64,000 nt of DNA from Candidatus Omnitrophota bacterium (GCA_041650835.1 JBAZKL010000002.1:338472-402471); one strand, 5' to 3'; positions 4,938 through 52,318 are shown, numbered from the stretch's first letter. Numbers and translations are program-made. The notes: generated by a model not told the origin, from the letters alone.

Positions 4938-5541
4938 TTATCTTATCGGTTCAATACCTACCGCGTATATTTTCGGTATATGTTTAAAAGGCATTGATAT
5001 ACGTAAATTCGGTTCAGGGAATGTCGGAGCAACAAACGCTTCACGGCTTCTCGGAAAGAAATTAGGAATTACCGTATTGGCCCTGGACATCCTTAAAGGC
5101 CTTATTACCGTAACTCTCCTGGGAAATCTGGCGCTTACAAGAACAAATTTTCCGATAGACCCGCCATTACTTCGGATCATCTTTGGCCTGGGATGTATTT
5201 CCGGTCATAATTGGACCATATTCCTGAACTTTAAAGGAGGTAAAGGAGTAGCCACTACCTTAGGCGTTTTACTAGGGGCGGCATGGGTGATCCCGGGGAT
5301 CGGCTTCATATTAGCACTCGTGATCCTTACCTGGCTTGTAACATTCCTGGTGAGCCGTATAGTTTCCGTTGCTTCGATCTTAGCGGCAATATCTTTTCCT
5401 ATATATATGTCCATCAAAAACCTCTCACCAACACTCATTTTATCAAGTTTTATCATATCCGCGTTTATAATTCTACGCCACATCCCCAACATTAAACGGA
5501 TCCTGCAAAAAAAAGAACCGCGCATGTCGTTCAAGAAATAG
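4906..5541 (+). CDS. plsY: glycerol-3-phosphate acyltransferase PlsY
   Basis: GSGNVGATNASR motif and HNWTIFLNFKGGKGVAT; a ~200-aa polytopic membrane protein. Confidence 0.85.
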   Translation: MLWIIIGIIFSYLIGSIPTAYIFGICLKGIDIRKFGSGNVGATNASRLLGKKLGITVLALDILKGLITVTLLGNLALTRTNFPIDPPLLRIIFGLGCISGHNWTIFLNFKGGKGVATTLGVLLGAAWVIPGIGFILALVILTWLVTFLVSRIVSVASILAAISFPIYMSIKNLSPTLILSSFIISAFIILRHIPNIKRILQKKEPRMSFKK

Positions 5542-5550
5542 CCAAATATT

Positions 5551-5590
5551 ATAGTCACAAGTCACAAGTAATCGATAGTCTATAGTTACA
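5551..5590. repeat. short repeat 'atagtcacaagtcacaagta…gatagtctatagtt', copy 1 (immediately 3' of the plsY stop)
   Basis: Near-identical to 47071-47114, which lies immediately 3' of the lexA stop. Contains the direct repeat gtcacaa x2 and tagtc(c/t)atagt units. Confidence 0.45.
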
Positions 5591-5599
5591 AGATATTGA

Positions 5600-5810
5600 G
5601 TGAACGGGCCCTGTCTTGGACTATTTTCTCGCGGGAACGTTTGCCCCGCCCCGGCGTGGCGGGGCTGCACTCAGGTCGGCTGCGTCGCTCTGCCCGACTT
5701 CGTTTATCAAGGGGCATCCATGCCCGCCCCGTTAAAAAACGTAGTTTTCTAACGGGGCCCGCTCCTTGCCTTTATGCCCCGCTCGAAAACAGTCCAAGCC
5801 ACCCGTTCAC
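5600..5810. mobile_element. MITE-like element (~210 bp) bounded by ~30-bp imperfect terminal inverted repeats and carrying GC-rich internal hairpins
   Basis: 5' gtgaacgggccctgtcttggactattttc pairs with 3' gaaaacagtccaagccacccgttcac. Internal hairpins gccccgcc…ggcggggc and gggcat…atgccc. No ORF. Confidence 0.35.
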
Positions 5811-6091
5811 TAAAAATACTAACCATACACAGACCCTCTCGACAAGCTCGGGGTAAACCCTTCGACTTGGTTAACAGGGAAAGCTATCAGGCGCTGGAGG
5901 GTAAACATGTAGTCGATGGTCTATAATCAAGGAAATCCGAGAAACTGAGAAATCAGGGACTATGTAAACCGGATATCGGGGGATCAGGGATACCGGTGAC
6001 AGGGGGCACTGGAGACTGGGGAAATTGAGATAATTAACAAACTTGAGTAGTCTCAGATTACAAATAAAAGATTGAGAAAATTAACATATAA

Positions 6092-6136
6092 GAATAACGA
6101 AAATAACGCAACTAACGATAATAACGATATTAACGA
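6092..6136. repeat. five tandem copies of a 9-nt unit (WWtaacga)
   Basis: aataacga/aaataacgc/aactaacga/taataacga/tattaacga read directly from the sequence. Confidence 0.55.
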
Positions 6137-6397
6137 ATATTGAAAACGCTTTCTATAAAACACTGAAACTCCTTGAAAACATGTAAATTATGATGTTATA
6201 CTCTAACTAAGAAATAGAAGAATGATATCAATTCATAAAAGGTTTTTTTTCACCTCTTATTAAACACTTTAACAAAGTATTAATATAGTATCCCCACCAG
6301 CTACGAAAATCAGGGGATAGCCGGGTTGAACAAAATTAGCTTAGATAAGGTGACAACCCGGCTCCATAAAAGACAATGGGTCAAAACCGAGGTTATT

Positions 6398-6730
6398 ATG
6401 AGAGACCTATTATACCGGAACTTAACTTCACCAAATAAAAACCGAAGGATAATTACCAGTTCCGAAATAGCAGACAAAGAAGGTATCAGGACCGTAATAC
6501 AAAGACATTTCATTTATATTGTTAAAAGAATAAACGGTAAAATACCGCCTAAGCCAAAGCCGTATCTTTACGTTCTAAAAGAAAAGAGCCAAAAGAAACA
6601 GATGGAAAAATTCTTTTGCAGGATCAAAGGCGGGTTTTATATTATTAACAACGGCACTCCGGCACTCGTTCTTTTTACGCATTCACTTAAAATAAACCTG
6701 AGCGCCATAAATAAAACAACTCTTTGTTAA
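6398..6730 (+). CDS. hypothetical small basic protein (uncertain)
   Basis: Internal ATG 6398 of track ORF 6326..6730, with a GAGG Shine-Dalgarno 6 nt upstream. K/R-rich, no recognised motif. The track TTG start at 6326 lies inside a 10-bp stem-loop. Confidence 0.25.
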   Translation: MRDLLYRNLTSPNKNRRIITSSEIADKEGIRTVIQRHFIYIVKRINGKIPPKPKPYLYVLKEKSQKKQMEKFFCRIKGGFYIINNGTPALVLFTHSLKINLSAINKTTLC

Positions 6731-13824: not shown

Positions 13825-14052
13825 TTCCTTCTGGCAACGCAGCCCCCCGATTAATTAATCGGGGCTGTCGCTTTGCGCCCCAGCATTACTGCTGGTTTGC
13901 CTTTTACAGTACTCGAAATTGTCAAACCGAACTCGGGCCGATCGCCCTTATCCCTATCTCCAATTAAAATATAACATATATTTACACATATTTCAAGTTT
14001 ACCGCGCTATTATTTTATCAATATCACAATGTGTCATTTTACCCTAAACACT

Positions 14053-40513: not shown

Positions 40514-40855
40514 ATGGCATTATTTTCACGCGAAAAAAGACAATCCGCACGGATAAAATTTTCTAGCCCTTTGCGTTACCAAATCAGAGGAAATTCCGTC
40601 GTTAATAATGCGGTGGGAGATAATATCAGTCTGGGTGGAATGGCTTTTATAAATGAAACCGGCCTTCCTCGCTCATCGACGGTAATGCTGGAATTTAATA
40701 TATTATCGCAGATAATCAAACCGGTAGGCCAGGTCATAAGGGCAACGCCATTACCGCATTCTGACCGATACCGGTTAGGAATAGAATTTATTGAGATGGA
40801 TCCGAACCAAAAAAACTATCTTGAAAAATATTTAAAAATGATAGCGCAAGCTTAA
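40514..40855 (+). CDS. PilZ-domain protein
   Basis: RxxxR…D/NxSxGG pattern: RQSARIKF…GDNISLGGMAF. Confidence 0.7.
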   Translation: MALFSREKRQSARIKFSSPLRYQIRGNSVVNNAVGDNISLGGMAFINETGLPRSSTVMLEFNILSQIIKPVGQVIRATPLPHSDRYRLGIEFIEMDPNQKNYLEKYLKMIAQA

Positions 40856-40875
40856 AGGGAGGTTAATTAATTAAA

Positions 40876-41070
40876 ATGTCTGCTCAAGAAACCAAAAAGG
40901 AAGGCGCGGCAAGCGCGGAAGCTAAACCGGTAGAAGAAAAACAAACAAATTGCCTGTCGTGTAACAAACAGCTCAAGAAAATCAAACGTTATTATCGTAA
41001 CAACAAATTTTATTGCAGCAAGAAATGCTGGTTAAAAGTAACCAAAAAAGCCACAGAAGAGGCAAAATGA
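40876..41070 (+). CDS. YacG-like zinc-ribbon small protein
   Basis: CLSCNKQ…(19 aa)…YCSKKCW resembles the YacG CxxC…FCSKRC motif. Confidence 0.4.
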   Translation: MSAQETKKEGAASAEAKPVEEKQTNCLSCNKQLKKIKRYYRNNKFYCSKKCWLKVTKKATEEAK

Positions 41071-41438
41071 GTAAATCCTCCAAAAGCGAACGCAGGCTTT
41101 ATCCCAGGCTTCAACAAGAGCTCCCGCTTAAAGTGATCGCCAACGGCTATGATTTCGCGACTCAAACTCAAAACATCAGTTGTGTCGGGGCATATTGCCA
41201 TATTAATAAATATGTTCCGCCTTTTACGAAAGTTATGATCACCGTAAGCCTTCCGGCATCAAAGAACAACAAGAATAAAACTAATACTGTCGAATGTAAA
41301 GGTGTGATCGTACGCACGGAAGATGAAGCAAAAGGCGGTTATAATATTGCCATATTCTTTAACGGTATTCAGGAAACCCCGCGCAAGAAAATCACGGAAT
41401 ATATTAACCAGATCTTACCTGAGAGTACTCTCGCGTAA
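41067..41438 (+). CDS. PilZ-domain protein
   Basis: RRLYPRL…QNISCVGAY PilZ motifs. Track ORF trimmed to ATG 41067 (4-nt overlap with the upstream gene). Confidence 0.65.
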   Translation: MSKSSKSERRLYPRLQQELPLKVIANGYDFATQTQNISCVGAYCHINKYVPPFTKVMITVSLPASKNNKNKTNTVECKGVIVRTEDEAKGGYNIAIFFNGIQETPRKKITEYINQILPESTLA

Positions 41439-41519
41439 AACGCTTTACAATCAATCGTTCTTCCCGCCTGGTAAATTATTACTCCTTGAGCACGAGCTAA
41501 ATTCTCAAATACAGGTATA

Positions 41520-41690
41520 GATTTCCATAAAAACAGGTATGGTACTTAAGTATAAATTCTAAAGATTAAAGAATAAAATAAATTCAAAGGTTAAATAACA
41601 AATTTTAAGATTACCTGCCTGCCGACAGGCAGGAACCTTGGAACTTTAAGCTTGCTTTGTTATTTATTCTTGTACCTTTATACTTAAAAA
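41520..41690. repeat. AT-rich palindromic intergenic repeat, copy 2 (with central GC hairpin cctgcctg-ccga-caggcagg)
   Basis: Shares taaagattaaaga…aaaggttaaataacaaattttaagattacctgcc…gcaggaacctt…tttgttatttat with the copy at 49455-49620. A long imperfect palindrome overall. Confidence 0.5.
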
Positions 41691-41691
41691 T

Positions 41692-42234
41692 ATGGGGCTC
41701 ATTCGAAAACCGCATTCGGTAAAACTTATTATCGGTTTTATTTTTCAAGACGAAGATATCTTGAACCTCGCTCAAAGAAGCCTCACAAGGCATTTTGGCC
41801 GGATCGACCATGAGAGCCAGATCCTGCCCTTTACCCAAACAGATTATTATCAAAAAGAGATCGGGAAAGACTTAAAACGAAAATTTATCAGTTTCAAGAA
41901 ACTCATCTTACCTTCCGGGATCGCAAAGATCAAGTTCATGACCAACCGCCTTGAAGAGCGGTTTTTACATGACGGAAAGCGCCGCATTAATATCGATCCG
42001 GGATACCTGGACATGGCAAAACTTGTCCTTGCTTCGACCAAAGATTATATGCACCGTATCTACCTGGACCGGGGCATATACGCAGAGATCACGCTTTATT
42101 ACCGAAAAAACTCGTTTAAAAGCTGGGAATGGACCTACCGGGACTATGCTACGGCAGAATACATATCCATTTTCAATACCATAAGAGAACTCTATGCCGG
42201 ACAAGTAAATCAAACATGTATCCATCATATTTAA
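41692..42234 (+). CDS. conserved hypothetical protein (possible DUF4416 family)
   Basis: 180-aa ORF immediately upstream of and overlapping a radical-SAM gene; assignment from memory of the family, low confidence. Confidence 0.35.
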   Translation: MGLIRKPHSVKLIIGFIFQDEDILNLAQRSLTRHFGRIDHESQILPFTQTDYYQKEIGKDLKRKFISFKKLILPSGIAKIKFMTNRLEERFLHDGKRRINIDPGYLDMAKLVLASTKDYMHRIYLDRGIYAEITLYYRKNSFKSWEWTYRDYATAEYISIFNTIRELYAGQVNQTCIHHI

Positions 42235-46477: not shown

Positions 46478-47071
46478 GTGTCAAAAGAGCTTACTTTGAA
46501 ACAAAAGAAAGTATTGGATTTTATCAGTACCAGGATACGCGAGAATATACCGCCTACGATCCGGGAAATCGCCCAAAAATTAGGATTTTCATCAACCGGT
46601 ACCGTACGAGATTACCTCAACACACTTGAGAAAAAAGGCTATGTAAAGCGTACCAATAACAAATCCCGCGCTATTGAATTGTTACATATTTCACCAGGCA
46701 TTCCTATTGTAGGCAGCATTCCCGCAGGCAAGCCAGCTCTTGCATATGAAAATATTGAAGGCTATATCACCGATGACTTATTCCTGGGACGATTAAGCTT
46801 TGATGATGTTTTTGCGTTAAAAGTCAAAGGCGACAGCATGATCGATGCTGGCATTATGGATGGAGATATCGCCATCATTAAAAAGCAAACAACAGCGGAT
46901 AATTCTGATGTTGTGGCAGCATTATTTGAGGATAGTGAAGTAACCCTGAAAAGGCTCAAGATAAAAGAAAATAAAACCTTTCTAGAAGCCGCGAACAAAA
47001 ACTACGAACCTATTTACAAGCATTTCACGGTCATTGGGAAATTGATAACTATAGTAAGAAAATATATATAA
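46478..47071 (+). CDS. lexA: LexA repressor
   Basis: N-terminal winged HTH (IREIAQKLGFSSTGTVRDYLNTLEKKGY), Ala-Gly cleavage site (PAGKPALA), S24 Ser/Lys (VKGDSMIDAGI…AIIKK). Confidence 0.9.
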   Translation: MSKELTLKQKKVLDFISTRIRENIPPTIREIAQKLGFSSTGTVRDYLNTLEKKGYVKRTNNKSRAIELLHISPGIPIVGSIPAGKPALAYENIEGYITDDLFLGRLSFDDVFALKVKGDSMIDAGIMDGDIAIIKKQTTADNSDVVAALFEDSEVTLKRLKIKENKTFLEAANKNYEPIYKHFTVIGKLITIVRKYI

Positions 47072-47114
47072 TAGTCACAGGTCACAAGTAGTCCATAGTC
47101 GATAGTCCATAGTT
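47071..47114. repeat. short repeat 'tagtcacaggtcacaagtagtccatagtcgatagtccatagtt', copy 2, followed by a gtcattgcgaaa…gaagcaatc hairpin (47125-47162)
   Basis: Matches 5551-5590. The downstream hairpin is ccctgcgaagcaggg nested in cattgc…gcaat. Confidence 0.45.
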
Positions 47115-49454: not shown

Positions 49455-49620
49455 TTAAGACTTGTTGTCTCAGTAAAGTATAAAGATTAAAGACTAAATA
49501 ACAAAGGAAATTAAAAGGTTAAATAATAAATTTTAAAATTACCTGCCGGCAAGCAGGAACCTTTAATCTTTTAACTTTAATCTTCCTTTGTTATTTATCC
49601 TTTAGACTTTAGACTTAACT
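49455..49620. repeat. AT-rich palindromic intergenic repeat, copy 3
   Basis: See copy 2. Central hairpin cctgc-cggca-agcagg. Lies between the stop of the ligase gene and the start of the DUF134 gene. Confidence 0.5.
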
Positions 49621-52318
49621 TAATCAACCTCTGCCGCAAAGCCTCCGCGACAGCATCATAATCATCGCTTTTGAGCGCTCCCTGGCTTACTAATTCAGTA
49701 TAACTCAGCGGCTTTCCAATCGTAGCTCTTATCGCATGAAAACGGGGTATTTTTGTGTGCCGCGACCAGGCCTGGAATGTGCCTTCAATATAAACTGGTA
49801 CCAGAGGAATATTGAGCTCCTTAGCCAGGATCCCGATACCTTTTTTAAACTTGATCACCTCCCCTGCGGGATTGCGCTGCCCTTCAGGAAAGATACAAAC
49901 TATTTTCTTTTGAGCCAATAAATAAGAACAGATACGCATTGCCTCAACCATGTCCAGAGTGACATCGATCGGGATCAACCTGGCCATCTTAATTGAATCC
50001 CTGATAAAAGGCTGCAAAAAGATCCGCTTTAACCCTACAAAATATGTCTTAAGCAATATATGAAACGGCAATACCGCGGACATAACAAACCCATCCAAAT
50101 AACTGGAATGGTTCGCAAAGATTATATACGGCCCGCTTGCCGGCAGGTTCTTTTTGCCTTTAATGGATAAAAGGAACAATGCCCTCAAAACGCAGCGAAT
50201 TATGGTTATAACGAGTAAACCCGCGATCTTATCAATAAAATACGGCTTAAGCCTTACCATACTCAAAGTTTTAGGATGCGGCCGCTCAATCAGCATTTCC
50301 GACCATAACAATTCATCCCGATGAATATATTTTACATCTTGAGGGATAAAAGGCTCTAGTTTTAGCAATAGATCTCTAATAGTATGGGCAAAAAAGAATT
50401 CCGACTGTATGGACTCGGAAGCCTGAATATTCAAGAACCTGAAGAGTTCCAGAAGTAATTCGATCCTGCCTAAAGAATCAAGCCCCAGGTCCAACTCCAA
50501 ATGATCATCCAAATTGACCTTACGATTAAGCCGCTTTGATATCAACGCGAGTATTTTTCCGGAGATCTCCGAAGTAAAGGCGCCGGCGTCTTCACTGACG
50601 CCCCCCCTCTTCTCATTCTGAAAAACACTGCTTCCCTCTTGAACATACTTTGCCTCTATCTTATGGCGCATGATCTTGCCTAATGCGGTCCGCGGAAGCT
50701 TTTCTTTACTAATAATGAAGCCGGTAACACGCTTATAATTGCTTATTTGATGTGATAAATTATCCAATTCCCAGCGTATTTTCTCTTCAATATTGGCCAC
50801 TGCCCGGGAATTAAAATAATCCTCGTTAGGGACGATCACTGCCATAAGCTGCTTTGCCTCGCCGATAAAGCCCACCCGTGAAGCGACAAAAATACATATT
50901 TCTTTGATATAGGGGCTTAAAAGGTAGTGCCGTTCGATCTCTTCAGGGTTTATCTTCTTGCCGGAGCTTAAAACAATGATCTCATCTTTCCTGCCTTTGA
51001 TATAAAGATATCCGGATTTGTCAAAGTACCCCAGGTCTTCTGTCAGAAACCATCCATCTTTAAGCACCCGGGCGTTTTCCTGAGGCAACTGGTAATACCC
51101 CAACATCACATTCTCTCCCCGGATCGCGACTTTACCGATCCCCTGTTCATCCGGATCCAATATCTTTACCTGGACTCCGGGGATCGGTTTTCCAACAGTT
51201 CCGATCTTAGGCTTGAGCGGAGGATTGAACGTGACGACAGGAGACGTTTCGGTCAAGCCATAACCTTCCAAGATGGTGAATCCCCACTTAAAGAAATCGC
51301 GCATTATCGTTGTTTCGATCTTGGCACCCCCGGTAGTCATAAAACGCAATTTACTCCCAAAGACGGCATGCATTCTATGCAACAGGTATTTACTTAAATT
51401 CAACCCCGTTATTCTTCTCAGGGCCCACAATACCCAAATTAAAACCTGTATGCCTGAACGAAGCAGCACAGGGATCTTCTTAAACCTTTGCTTTATCGCT
51501 TTATGAAAGATCGAGAAAAATTGCGGCACCCCGACTAAAATACTCACCTTCGTCTGTACCATACAATCCAGTAAATCATCGGAATTCAAACTCGCCGGAT
51601 AACTGATCTGCGCGCCTAAAAGAAGCGGCACTAAACAAGTAACCATACATGAATAGGTATGATGAAGCGGCAGGAATGAGATCAAACAATCATTTTTGGT
51701 CACGAGCTTCAGTCTGCGGATCGAATCTATATTCGCTAAGAGATTAACCTGGGAAAGCATGACCGCCTTAGGCTGAGCCGTTGTCCCCGAAGTATAAAAC
51801 ATAGCCGCAACGGCTTCAAGAGGCCTAATGAGGGGTGCTTCCTGCAAACTTTTTGAGGCATGAGTAAGCTGTTCCTGAAAGGCGAGCGAATCAATAAGCA
51901 GTATTTCGACGCTTTTTAAGCCGTCCAGAAACGCGGTGTTTTGAGCGTAGGCCTTCTCCGCGCAAAGAATTATTTTTGACGAAGAATGTATTACTAACTG
52001 AGTAATATCAGGAGCCGGCAGGCGGACATCGATAGGCACGGCAACCGCGCCCGCGAATTGCACTGCCAGAAATGATACCGGCCATTCCACCTGGTTACCG
52101 ACAAGAATAGAGATCCTGTCGGATTTCGCTACCCCCCGCCGGACCAGTAAATTACCCATCGTGAGCGCTTTCTGATAGAGCTCAAGATAAGATATTTCAG
52201 AATATTCTTTATTATTTTTATGGAAAACGGCTGTTTTGGAAGGAGACGCTTTGGCTACTTGAGTGAATTCCTCGAATATACTGAGGCGATTTTGAGCCAT
52301 ATTTTTATATTGAAGCAA
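49595..52318 (-). CDS. tri-domain acyl-AMP ligase (AMP-binding) - acyl carrier (PP-binding) - PlsC-type acyltransferase
   Basis: AMP-binding motifs (FYTSGTTAQPKAV; YGLTETS; TEDLGYFD…GRKDEIIV). ACP-like LDDHLELDLGLDSLGRIELL (DSL). C-terminal FANHSSYLDGF (HX4D) and FPEG acyltransferase motifs. 907 aa. Confidence 0.8.
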   Translation of the reverse strand: MLQYKNMAQNRLSIFEEFTQVAKASPSKTAVFHKNNKEYSEISYLELYQKALTMGNLLVRRGVAKSDRISILVGNQVEWPVSFLAVQFAGAVAVPIDVRLPAPDITQLVIHSSSKIILCAEKAYAQNTAFLDGLKSVEILLIDSLAFQEQLTHASKSLQEAPLIRPLEAVAAMFYTSGTTAQPKAVMLSQVNLLANIDSIRRLKLVTKNDCLISFLPLHHTYSCMVTCLVPLLLGAQISYPASLNSDDLLDCMVQTKVSILVGVPQFFSIFHKAIKQRFKKIPVLLRSGIQVLIWVLWALRRITGLNLSKYLLHRMHAVFGSKLRFMTTGGAKIETTIMRDFFKWGFTILEGYGLTETSPVVTFNPPLKPKIGTVGKPIPGVQVKILDPDEQGIGKVAIRGENVMLGYYQLPQENARVLKDGWFLTEDLGYFDKSGYLYIKGRKDEIIVLSSGKKINPEEIERHYLLSPYIKEICIFVASRVGFIGEAKQLMAVIVPNEDYFNSRAVANIEEKIRWELDNLSHQISNYKRVTGFIISKEKLPRTALGKIMRHKIEAKYVQEGSSVFQNEKRGGVSEDAGAFTSEISGKILALISKRLNRKVNLDDHLELDLGLDSLGRIELLLELFRFLNIQASESIQSEFFFAHTIRDLLLKLEPFIPQDVKYIHRDELLWSEMLIERPHPKTLSMVRLKPYFIDKIAGLLVITIIRCVLRALFLLSIKGKKNLPASGPYIIFANHSSYLDGFVMSAVLPFHILLKTYFVGLKRIFLQPFIRDSIKMARLIPIDVTLDMVEAMRICSYLLAQKKIVCIFPEGQRNPAGEVIKFKKGIGILAKELNIPLVPVYIEGTFQAWSRHTKIPRFHAIRATIGKPLSYTELVSQGALKSDDYDAVAEALRQRLIKLSLKSKG

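Follow-up and report, generated by a model that had tools for sequence, protein, structure and literature searches.

The three long AT-rich palindromes in the window, the 64-kb (64,000-nucleotide) stretch of Candidatus Omnitrophota DNA analyzed here, belong to a family of dispersed repeats of which we recovered 40 distinct copies. On balance, we favor the view that this is a non-coding, selfish mobile palindrome family of an uncultured Omnitrophota clade, likely a gene-less miniature of an element that resembles the intervening sequences (IVSs) of rRNA and carries a PF05635 gene. Small palindromic repeats shape bacterial operons, and none had previously been described for Omnitrophota, a large uncultured phylum; literature searches on intergenic repeats of Planctomycetes or Omnitrophota returned no description of such a family. 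The repeats provide clean natural examples of a translationally coupled gene pair that has been split and of a protein end that has been rewritten, and, for annotation, they explain why some spacers in these MAGs are long and seemingly "empty" and why some ORFs are spuriously extended. The role of PF05635, and the origin and mobility of the rRNA IVSs that carry it, have been open questions since the early 1990s (PMC4990558). If the link to PF05635 holds, the filled and empty sites, the gene-bearing and gene-less forms and a candidate 7-nt recognition motif would make these questions experimentally approachable.

Architecture and distribution of the family

The window is a housekeeping stretch, with a GC content of 43.6%, within a metagenomic contig of 868 kb, and its proteins have their closest relatives in Candidatus Omnitrophota. 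The family element, which we call module A, was placed by nhmmer at three sites:

1714-1825, - strand: copy 1, 76 bits on this strand versus 40 on the + strand; GC hairpin absent
41546-41687, + strand: copy 2, 104 bits; between a PilZ gene and a DUF4416 gene
49472-49620, + strand: copy 3, 112 bits; its inverted repeat reaches 49464-49628

The neighbors of copy 3, both on the - strand, are an aas-like gene (AMP-binding and acyltransferase domains) and a DUF134 gene. Three AT-rich palindromes of about 150 bp had originally been predicted, and all are present; their limits differ slightly from those proposed, and positions 1826-1862, which had been counted with copy 1, form a separate GC-rich hairpin module. 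The copies resemble one another far more than chance would allow (nhmmer E values to copy 3: copy 2, 1.8e-16; copy 1, 4.7e-08). Copies 2 and 3 share an orientation and copy 1 has the opposite one; copy 1 is also more degenerate, with a truncated outer left arm. An arm motif, AAGTNTAAAG-N9-TAAATAACAAAG, is exact in four of the six window arms, where 0.02 would be expected by chance. Folding of each copy as a single strand succeeded for copies 2 and 3 (z = -4.8 to -6.3 on either strand) and failed for copy 1 (z about -1).

A family element spans approximately 115-150 nt and consists of mirrored arrays, each arm containing eight or nine 7-nt units that read TAAAGNN on one arm and NNCTTTA on the other and join at AATTTT followed by AAAATT. 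The family consensus is (cg)TTAATGATAAAGgtTAAAGtcTAAATAACAAAGGAAATTCAAAGAATAAAGGTTAAATTTTAAAATT, with or without CCTGCCTGCCGGCAGGCAGG, and then AACCTTTAACCTTTAATCTTCCTTTGTTATTTAgaCTTTAgaCTTTATCATTAAC(g). Its ends are the terminal inverted repeats (C)GTTAATGATAAAG and CTTTATCATTAAC(G). Inverted repetition runs through the entire body, and the element has a polarity, the better strand scoring about twice as high as the other. The heptad periodicity was overlooked in the original prediction, which also did not recognize that the GC hairpin is a unit of its own, that copy 1 lies within a bigger composite, or that there is a link to four-helix-bundle (IVS-protein) genes. Bases 7 nt apart are identical at a frequency of 0.54 (shuffles, 0.30; z = 34), and those 14 nt apart at 0.46. 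Across 34 aligned copies, the AAAG and CTTT cores are invariant or nearly so; two or three spacer bases vary almost freely, near saturation. Spacer dinucleotides differ greatly among copies of one genome, which is unexpected under a simple model of a recent burst from a master copy. A divergent member (L040 and L053, JGI20214J51088, ~210-400; L-numbers denote fetched loci of related DNA compared with the window) carries four tandem CTTTTAA units, with AGTAAAA units on its other arm, and shows that heptad number can change by slippage.

The symmetry is a property of the family consensus and is not upheld by compensatory change within copies. Complementarity between the arms reaches 69% in the best register and is still ~51-57% after shifts of 7 or 14 nt. 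RNAalifold assigned no consensus pairs to the 34 copies. With the palindromic register imposed, 76.2% of cells pair versus 78.4% when partners are shuffled among copies, and the covariation score is 0.065 versus 0.080; the observed values were reached by 500 of 500 shuffles. Variable positions are paired in 0-35% of copies. Since the arms do not covary, a selected RNA or DNA hairpin or cruciform is unsupported, and the combination of free spacers, invariant cores and no compensatory change argues for a constraint on the 7-nt motif itself. What is conserved of the proposed palindrome is therefore its mirrored arrays of 7-nt motifs, and not its compensated base pairs. By eye, the conserved block TAAATAACAAAGGAA contains no IHF-type site.

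These results bear directly on the suggestion that the repeats are a structured RNA. Genes for structured non-coding RNAs, or cis-regulatory RNA leaders, would agree with the long predicted hairpins and the intergenic location, but we consider them highly improbable. In addition to the lack of consensus pairs and a covariation score below that of shuffles, the copies show no orientation bias relative to flanking genes (15:15), and orthologous copies evolve quickly. Rfam gave no match at the gathering threshold in the window, and permissive searches of 41400-41750 and 5500-6400 gave no relevant hit; for the family, only noise appeared at E values up to 5.

The original prediction depended on the existence of further copies, and many were found. 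When one genome per species was scanned for the arm motif, a single MAG accounted for nine matches, and the two others look like chance. A metagenome scan with the right-arm motif CTTTGTTATTTANNCTTTANNCTTTA returned 41 loci, and an HMM search of all fetched DNA yielded 60 hits, which reduce to the 40 distinct copies of at least 50 bits. These lie in ~450 kb from at least four related Omnitrophota populations, and copy density is roughly 25-50 per Mb. They were recovered from the genome of the window, from CAZPNW01 (a MAG equal to JGI Ga0105098), from Ga0265297 as a third genome and from further samples; in Ga0265297, two contigs of 435 and 366 kb contain at least 11 copies apiece. Hits to several very AT-rich metagenome contigs (L010, L011, L032, L034, L043 and L052) and to Phytoplasma and Chitinophagales were set aside as chance matches of the AT-rich pattern, and neither family pattern matched viral contigs. 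CAZPNW01 (L003-L013) is titled uncultured Planctomycetales; the named close homologues of window genes are all Omnitrophota or Omnitrophica, so this title is probably inexact.

Every one of the 40 copies occupies intergenic DNA, outside any ORF. Both flanks are visible for 33 copies: the neighboring genes are co-directional in 30 cases and convergent in three, and never divergent; relative to the genes, 15 are co-oriented and 15 anti-oriented. Many copies in the third genome fill the whole spacer, 6-50 nt from both ORFs. In four cases, copy 3 among them, the stop codon of the upstream ORF lies ~14-22 nt inside the element:

49595-49615, - strand: end of the aas-like ORF (last six codons, SLKSKG, and stop), encoded by the right arm of copy 3

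A position next to operon boundaries, which had been claimed for all three window copies, holds only partly, as copy 1 lies inside a gene pair (cmk-lepA) that is translationally coupled in relatives.

Filled and empty sites

By blastn and tblastn, none of the fetched loci proved orthologous to the window, and orthologues were therefore reached through protein look-ups. The relatedness of the genomes compared below rests on single proteins (80-91% identity), so the order of independent gain or loss at a site is uncertain. The clearest size difference is found around copy 1:

1622-1974: cmk-lepA spacer, 353 nt (cmk stop at 1619-1621, true lepA ATG at 1975)

The corresponding spacer is -8 nt (an overlap) in L057/L058, 6 nt in L059 and 91 nt in a fourth relative, with Cmk proteins 91%, 83% and 89% identical to that of the window, respectively. 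In the window, most of the spacer (~1624-1950) is a composite palindromic element with a module A core, made up of a GTGACTT unit, a GGTTAGG-type module, module A, two small hairpin modules, a TTAACGTTAA junction and a CCTAACC-type module. Positions 1635-1934 are 84% identical to a composite from a non-orthologous locus of another genome (L006 2685-2998), and a similar composite in L005 forms a ~300-nt hairpin fold (z = -6.2). The C-terminal tail of cmk is too variable for placing the insertion junction.

The spacer orthologous to that of copy 3 in the MAG L056 contains a different repeat mosaic and no module A. Divergence at this site starts within the 3' end of the aas-like gene, so that the two proteins differ at their C termini (RQRLIKL-SLKSKG and stop in the window; RQRLIKL-KKDE and stop in the L056 relative). 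At the copy 2 site, the element is present in all three genomes examined (window, L055 and L056). The L055 element has lost ~50 nt and the interior of the L056 element is largely unalignable (family HMM E value, 8e-07), while the flanking non-coding DNA is ~90% identical among the three. The converse situation occurs after plsY, where the 91% relative has a complete copy (L057 8372-8511, 118 bits) and other modules are present in the window.

Insertion polymorphism between related genomes was thus observed at the cmk-lepA, plsY and copy 3 sites. Non-orthologous copies from different genomes are 87-91% identical, and orthologous copies decay; this combination points to a selfish element kept by its own propagation. 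The original view of a mobile repeat of the MITE or REP kind is well founded as far as mobility is concerned, with dozens of dispersed copies in several genomes and orthologous sites that are filled in one and empty in another. TTAA is frequent, though not universal, at both ends of the copies. No consistent target-site duplication was seen at the ends of ~20 stand-alone copies or at the cmk-lepA junction, nor was there a precise excision footprint or an exact empty-site junction for module A. A Pfam scan of the ORFs in the 64-kb window identified no transposase, integrase or RAYT.

A second, much smaller unit is associated with this family. Two of the window copies contain it:

41614-41633: 20-nt GC palindrome CCTGCCTGCCGACAGGCAGG, i.e., CCTGCCTG-CCGA-CAGGCAGG, nested in copy 2
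49542-49557: short GC palindrome variant CCTGCCGGCAAGCAGG, i.e., CCTGC-CGGCAA-GCAGG, nested in copy 3

Both have the sequences originally described. The palindrome sits 6-7 nt off the symmetry center of module A, and 15 of the 40 copies (~40%) are free of it. We counted ~30 distinct instances of CCTGCCTGCCGGCAGGCAGG variants, several of them outside module A, and the stem is kept in variants such as CCTACC/GGTAGG, CCTGAC/GTCAGG and CTTG/CAAG. Two exact filled/empty pairs were found. At L009 6148, the palindrome lies between ggggcccgctc and cttgcc, and the window is empty between 5764 and 5765; at L009 6561, it lies between ccttaacc and taacaacc, and the paralogous module in L012 is uninterrupted. 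The GC palindrome is therefore a separate, independently insertable 20-nt unit. The prediction that copy 1 is inverted and has no hairpin is correct, but its assertion that the hairpin was precisely lost is unlikely given hairpin-free members elsewhere in the family and a palindrome insertable on its own; copy 1 most likely never received it. Other inserts at the center of module A are a 63-nt segment in L028 and a 390-nt gene-bearing segment in L030. On the - strand, the hairpin of copy 3 is followed by TAATTTTAAA and scores as terminator-like. Since such a terminator would be one-sided, and hairpin-bearing copies comprise nine co-oriented and 10 anti-oriented members, we rejected termination as the selected function of the hairpin.

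Gene-bearing units and the origin of the family

One of the 40 family copies contains a gene, and homologues of this gene led to three similar units:

L030 1133-1624: gene-bearing unit with family arms at 1133-1192 and 1565-1624, 78% complementary
L061 463-926: unit with 52-nt arrays of the TAAAG/CTTTA type (family HMM E value, 5e-06)
L062 1500-1969: unit with 57-nt arrays containing CAAAGGAAATTCAAA, as module A does; right after thiC
L064 1416-1919: unit with 37-nt arrays and termini GTTAATGACAAAT...ATTTGTCATTAAC, the GTTAATGA end being common with module A; after plsY

The right arm of the L030 unit is, by eye, almost identical to the family consensus. Its ORF encodes 117 aa, is preceded by AAAGGAG (Shine-Dalgarno) and matches PF05635, the 23S rRNA intervening sequence protein, a four-helix bundle (E value, 1.3e-18). 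The three homologues, which are 67-70% identical and come from other genomes, are all flanked by inverted heptad arrays of 37-57 nt placed 356-430 nt apart. Gene-bearing units of ~480-500 nt are thus inserted between ordinary genes in four different genomes. The three window copies have no ORF. We also noted a distant PF05635-like ORF at L044 2305-2704, between two apparent tRNA genes; its flanks have only 17-nt inverted repeats, with a tandem TATATTCTTGA(C/T)TC unit.

The most economical reading, and the most likely one, is that module A is a gene-less miniature of the PF05635-bearing unit. The presence of the gene in one copy out of 40 allows the alternative that it is not part of a parent element and could be one more cargo in an insertion-prone palindrome center. 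We know of no demonstration of a mobility function for PF05635 proteins. If the miniature reading is right, the parent would be the 480-500-nt element in which heptad arms surround a PF05635 (Avd-like) gene. Copies enter spacers and the extreme 3' ends of genes, where the arms provide a stop codon within ~25 nt, and single copies then decay after insertion; the consensus would be kept because only copies with intact heptad cores and termini propagate. The center of module A is a preferred landing place for small elements, above all the 20-nt palindrome CCTGCCTGCCGGCAGGCAGG. Under such a scheme, the invariant 7-nt cores and the GTTAATGA termini are the best candidates for sites recognized by a mobilizing factor. 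We further speculate, as a possible but rather doubtful extension, that PF05635 genes within inverted heptad arrays represent an autonomous mobile class, the free-living form of rRNA IVSs, whose protein reads the 7-nt cores and promotes movement, possibly through a nucleic-acid hairpin as intermediate. This class would have spread through the intergenic DNA of Omnitrophota, and perhaps of other phyla, and the window palindromes would be miniatures mobilized in trans.

Several features of the family would be expected of an ordinary MITE, that is, a deletion derivative of a conventional IS mobilized in trans by a DDE (or HUH) transposase, with the TTAA termini as target duplication. The copies are short, non-coding and numerous, they have terminal inverted repeats ((C)GTTAAT...ATTAAC(G)) and TTAA at many ends, and their sites are found filled and empty. 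Nonetheless, this origin appears unlikely, as the 64-kb window has no transposase gene, the one longer element that shares these arms has a PF05635 gene and not a transposase gene, and TTAA is not at both ends of all copies (it is missing at the left end of copy 3), with no duplication demonstrated. A distinctly unlikely explanation is a palindrome of the REP, BIME or ERIC type that serves the host, transcribed in operons as an mRNA stabilizer, RNase III site or terminator, with arms that may bear outward promoters. Two sites in the window are relevant to the last point:

41657-41684, + strand: promoter-like TTGTTA-N16-TATACT, facing outward on the right arm of copy 2 and 8 nt upstream of the DUF4416 start codon (ATG); a consensus match only
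49477-49504, - strand: promoter-like TTGTTA-N16-TATACT in the left arm of copy 3, toward the DUF134 gene; a consensus match only

These sites point toward downstream genes. On one strand, the GC hairpin and the TAATTTTA tail behind it score like a terminator, the folds of copies 2 and 3 lie well below those of shuffles, and many copies fill co-directional spacers at 6-50 nt from both ORFs. Promoter-like and terminator-like hits, however, are consensus matches within AT-rich DNA. The arms lack compensatory change, the orientation of hairpin copies is balanced (9:10), and orthologous copies decay or are replaced while adjacent non-coding DNA is conserved. Judged from sequence, effects on the host are possible all the same, including an AU-rich hairpin in polycistronic or read-through RNA, a weak one-sided terminator and outward promoters.

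The strict 7-nt periodicity, invariant cores, free spacers and mirrored arrays might instead reflect a platform for a protein that reads direct and inverted 7-bp arrays, either resembling the omega repressor or nucleoid-associated. The heptad operators and centromeres of pSM19035, to which omega repressor binds, are a model for such sites, and other heptad modules (GTCACAA, GGTTAGN) occur in the same spacers. We regard this as very unlikely. No candidate protein was identified, and gain, loss and decay at orthologous sites are not expected of required chromosomal sites; moreover, the periodicity fits equally well with sites for the element's own mobilizing factor or with heptad slippage, as in the four CTTTTAA units of L040.

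Among known systems, the closest structural relatives are the ORF-bearing rRNA intervening sequences, although the location differs and is not rRNA. IVSs are 428-444 nt long, contain an S23p ORF and have stem-forming terminal repeats; they are regarded as selfish and possibly once mobile, and a part in mobility has been suggested for the ORF (PMC4990558). PF05635 is similar to Avd, a nucleic-acid-handling accessory protein of diversity-generating retroelements (PMC10053308). Like the IVSs of Leptospira and Coxiella (PMC4990558), the long form (L030, L061, L062 and L064), which at 480-500 nt is of about their size, has a PF05635 (S23p) gene and complementary termini capable of forming a stem. 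In contrast to IVSs, the copies lie between protein-coding genes and not in 23S rRNA helices (9, 25 or 45), and their arms are heptad arrays of 37-65 nt where IVSs have a 28-bp stem. The gene-less window copies also have a counterpart, as ORF-less IVS hairpins exist.

Related repeats and neighboring modules

In behavior the family is MITE-like and in its mosaics BIME-like; it is not a REP. Rfam has no counterpart to it, and the literature searches revealed no relative by sequence. ERIC, Correia/NEMIS, RUP and Nezha are bacterial MITEs with long palindromic bodies (PMC3733652). As in these elements, which are often co-transcribed with their neighbors and sometimes contain promoters or terminators, the copies are short (100-300 nt in the comparison group), non-coding, dispersed, high-copy imperfect palindromes of intergenic DNA with terminal inverted repeats and insertion polymorphism. 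They differ in having no sequence similarity to these MITEs, 7-nt-unit arms and a four-helix-bundle gene; no target-site duplication was found, and no element bearing a cognate transposase was seen in the 64-kb window or in the one longer same-arm element.

RAYT transposases mobilize REP and BIME elements and REPINs (PMC3733652). The nested 20-nt GC palindrome resembles REPs in size, occurs alone or inside other repeats, shows paired stem changes and inserts without duplication; it falls within the definition of a REP as a dispersed, extragenic imperfect palindrome of 20-40 bp. It has no consistent unpaired GTAG or CGTC tag, GTAG occurring only inside the GGTAGG-variant stem. The 135-nt AT-rich element, in contrast, is far larger than a REP, and the window contains no RAYT gene. 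The spacers also recall BIMEs in being mosaics that combine several kinds of repeat module. The heptamer repeats of cyanobacteria (STRR), together with very small dispersed repeats that nest in others, were reportedly described by Mazel in 1990 and Elhai in 2008. Like STRR, the present arrays are intergenic and composed of 7-nt units, and tiny palindromic units are precisely inserted into other repeats; unlike STRR, they belong to another phylum, have other sequences and form defined, homologous, dispersed palindromes, not simple tandem arrays. Eukaryotic Foldback transposons have long inverted arms of short tandem subrepeats and a central loop that is empty or gene-bearing. The likeness to Foldback, with arms of variable subrepeat number and a loop with or without a gene, is one of architecture only, as Foldback elements are eukaryotic and much larger.

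Additional modules accompany module A in the window spacers. Two small ones lie beside copy 1:

1826-1862: 11-bp-stem hairpin, TGAATGAACCAT-N13-ATGGTTCATTCA
1863-1882: CCCGAGCTCTGTCGAGGGG

Both recur beside module A in L006, L009 and L042, and CCCGAGCTCTGTCGAGGGG is also found at window positions 5840-5858 and in L057. A second family with 7-nt units (TAGTCACAAGTCACAAGTA..CGATAGTC.ATAGT) is represented at 5546-5586 and 47066-47106, which are 88% identical; longer versions flank module A composites as direct repeats in L005 and L057. Positions 5596-5812 form a repeated GC-rich module (~215 nt), closed by the stem gtgaacggg...cccgttcac, that occupies the spot of the module A copy in L057, the 91% relative. 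Partial copies are present in L007 and L009 (6130-6225, split by the 20-nt GC palindrome), and Rfam gave no match to this module at E values up to 1. Positions 5905-6030 consist of purine-rich 7-nt units (GGGATCA GGGATAC CGGTGAC ... ACTGGAG ACTGGGG) reminiscent of cyanobacterial STRR, and the complement of these units (CCCCGGATTA.. type) recurs in spacers of L003, L008 and L009.

Immediately to the left of copy 2, 41511-41540 contains a direct repeat, ACAGGTAT-N14-ACAGGTAT, that is conserved in the orthologous L055 and L056 spacers even as the neighboring element diverges; the repeat may serve the DUF4416-radical SAM operon as an operator or part of a promoter. Two genes encoding PilZ domains lie at 40514-41438, and a c-di-GMP-I-GGC riboswitch aptamer was identified at 13829-13910 on the - strand (64.5 bits, exceeding the gathering score), where it precedes a small ORF.
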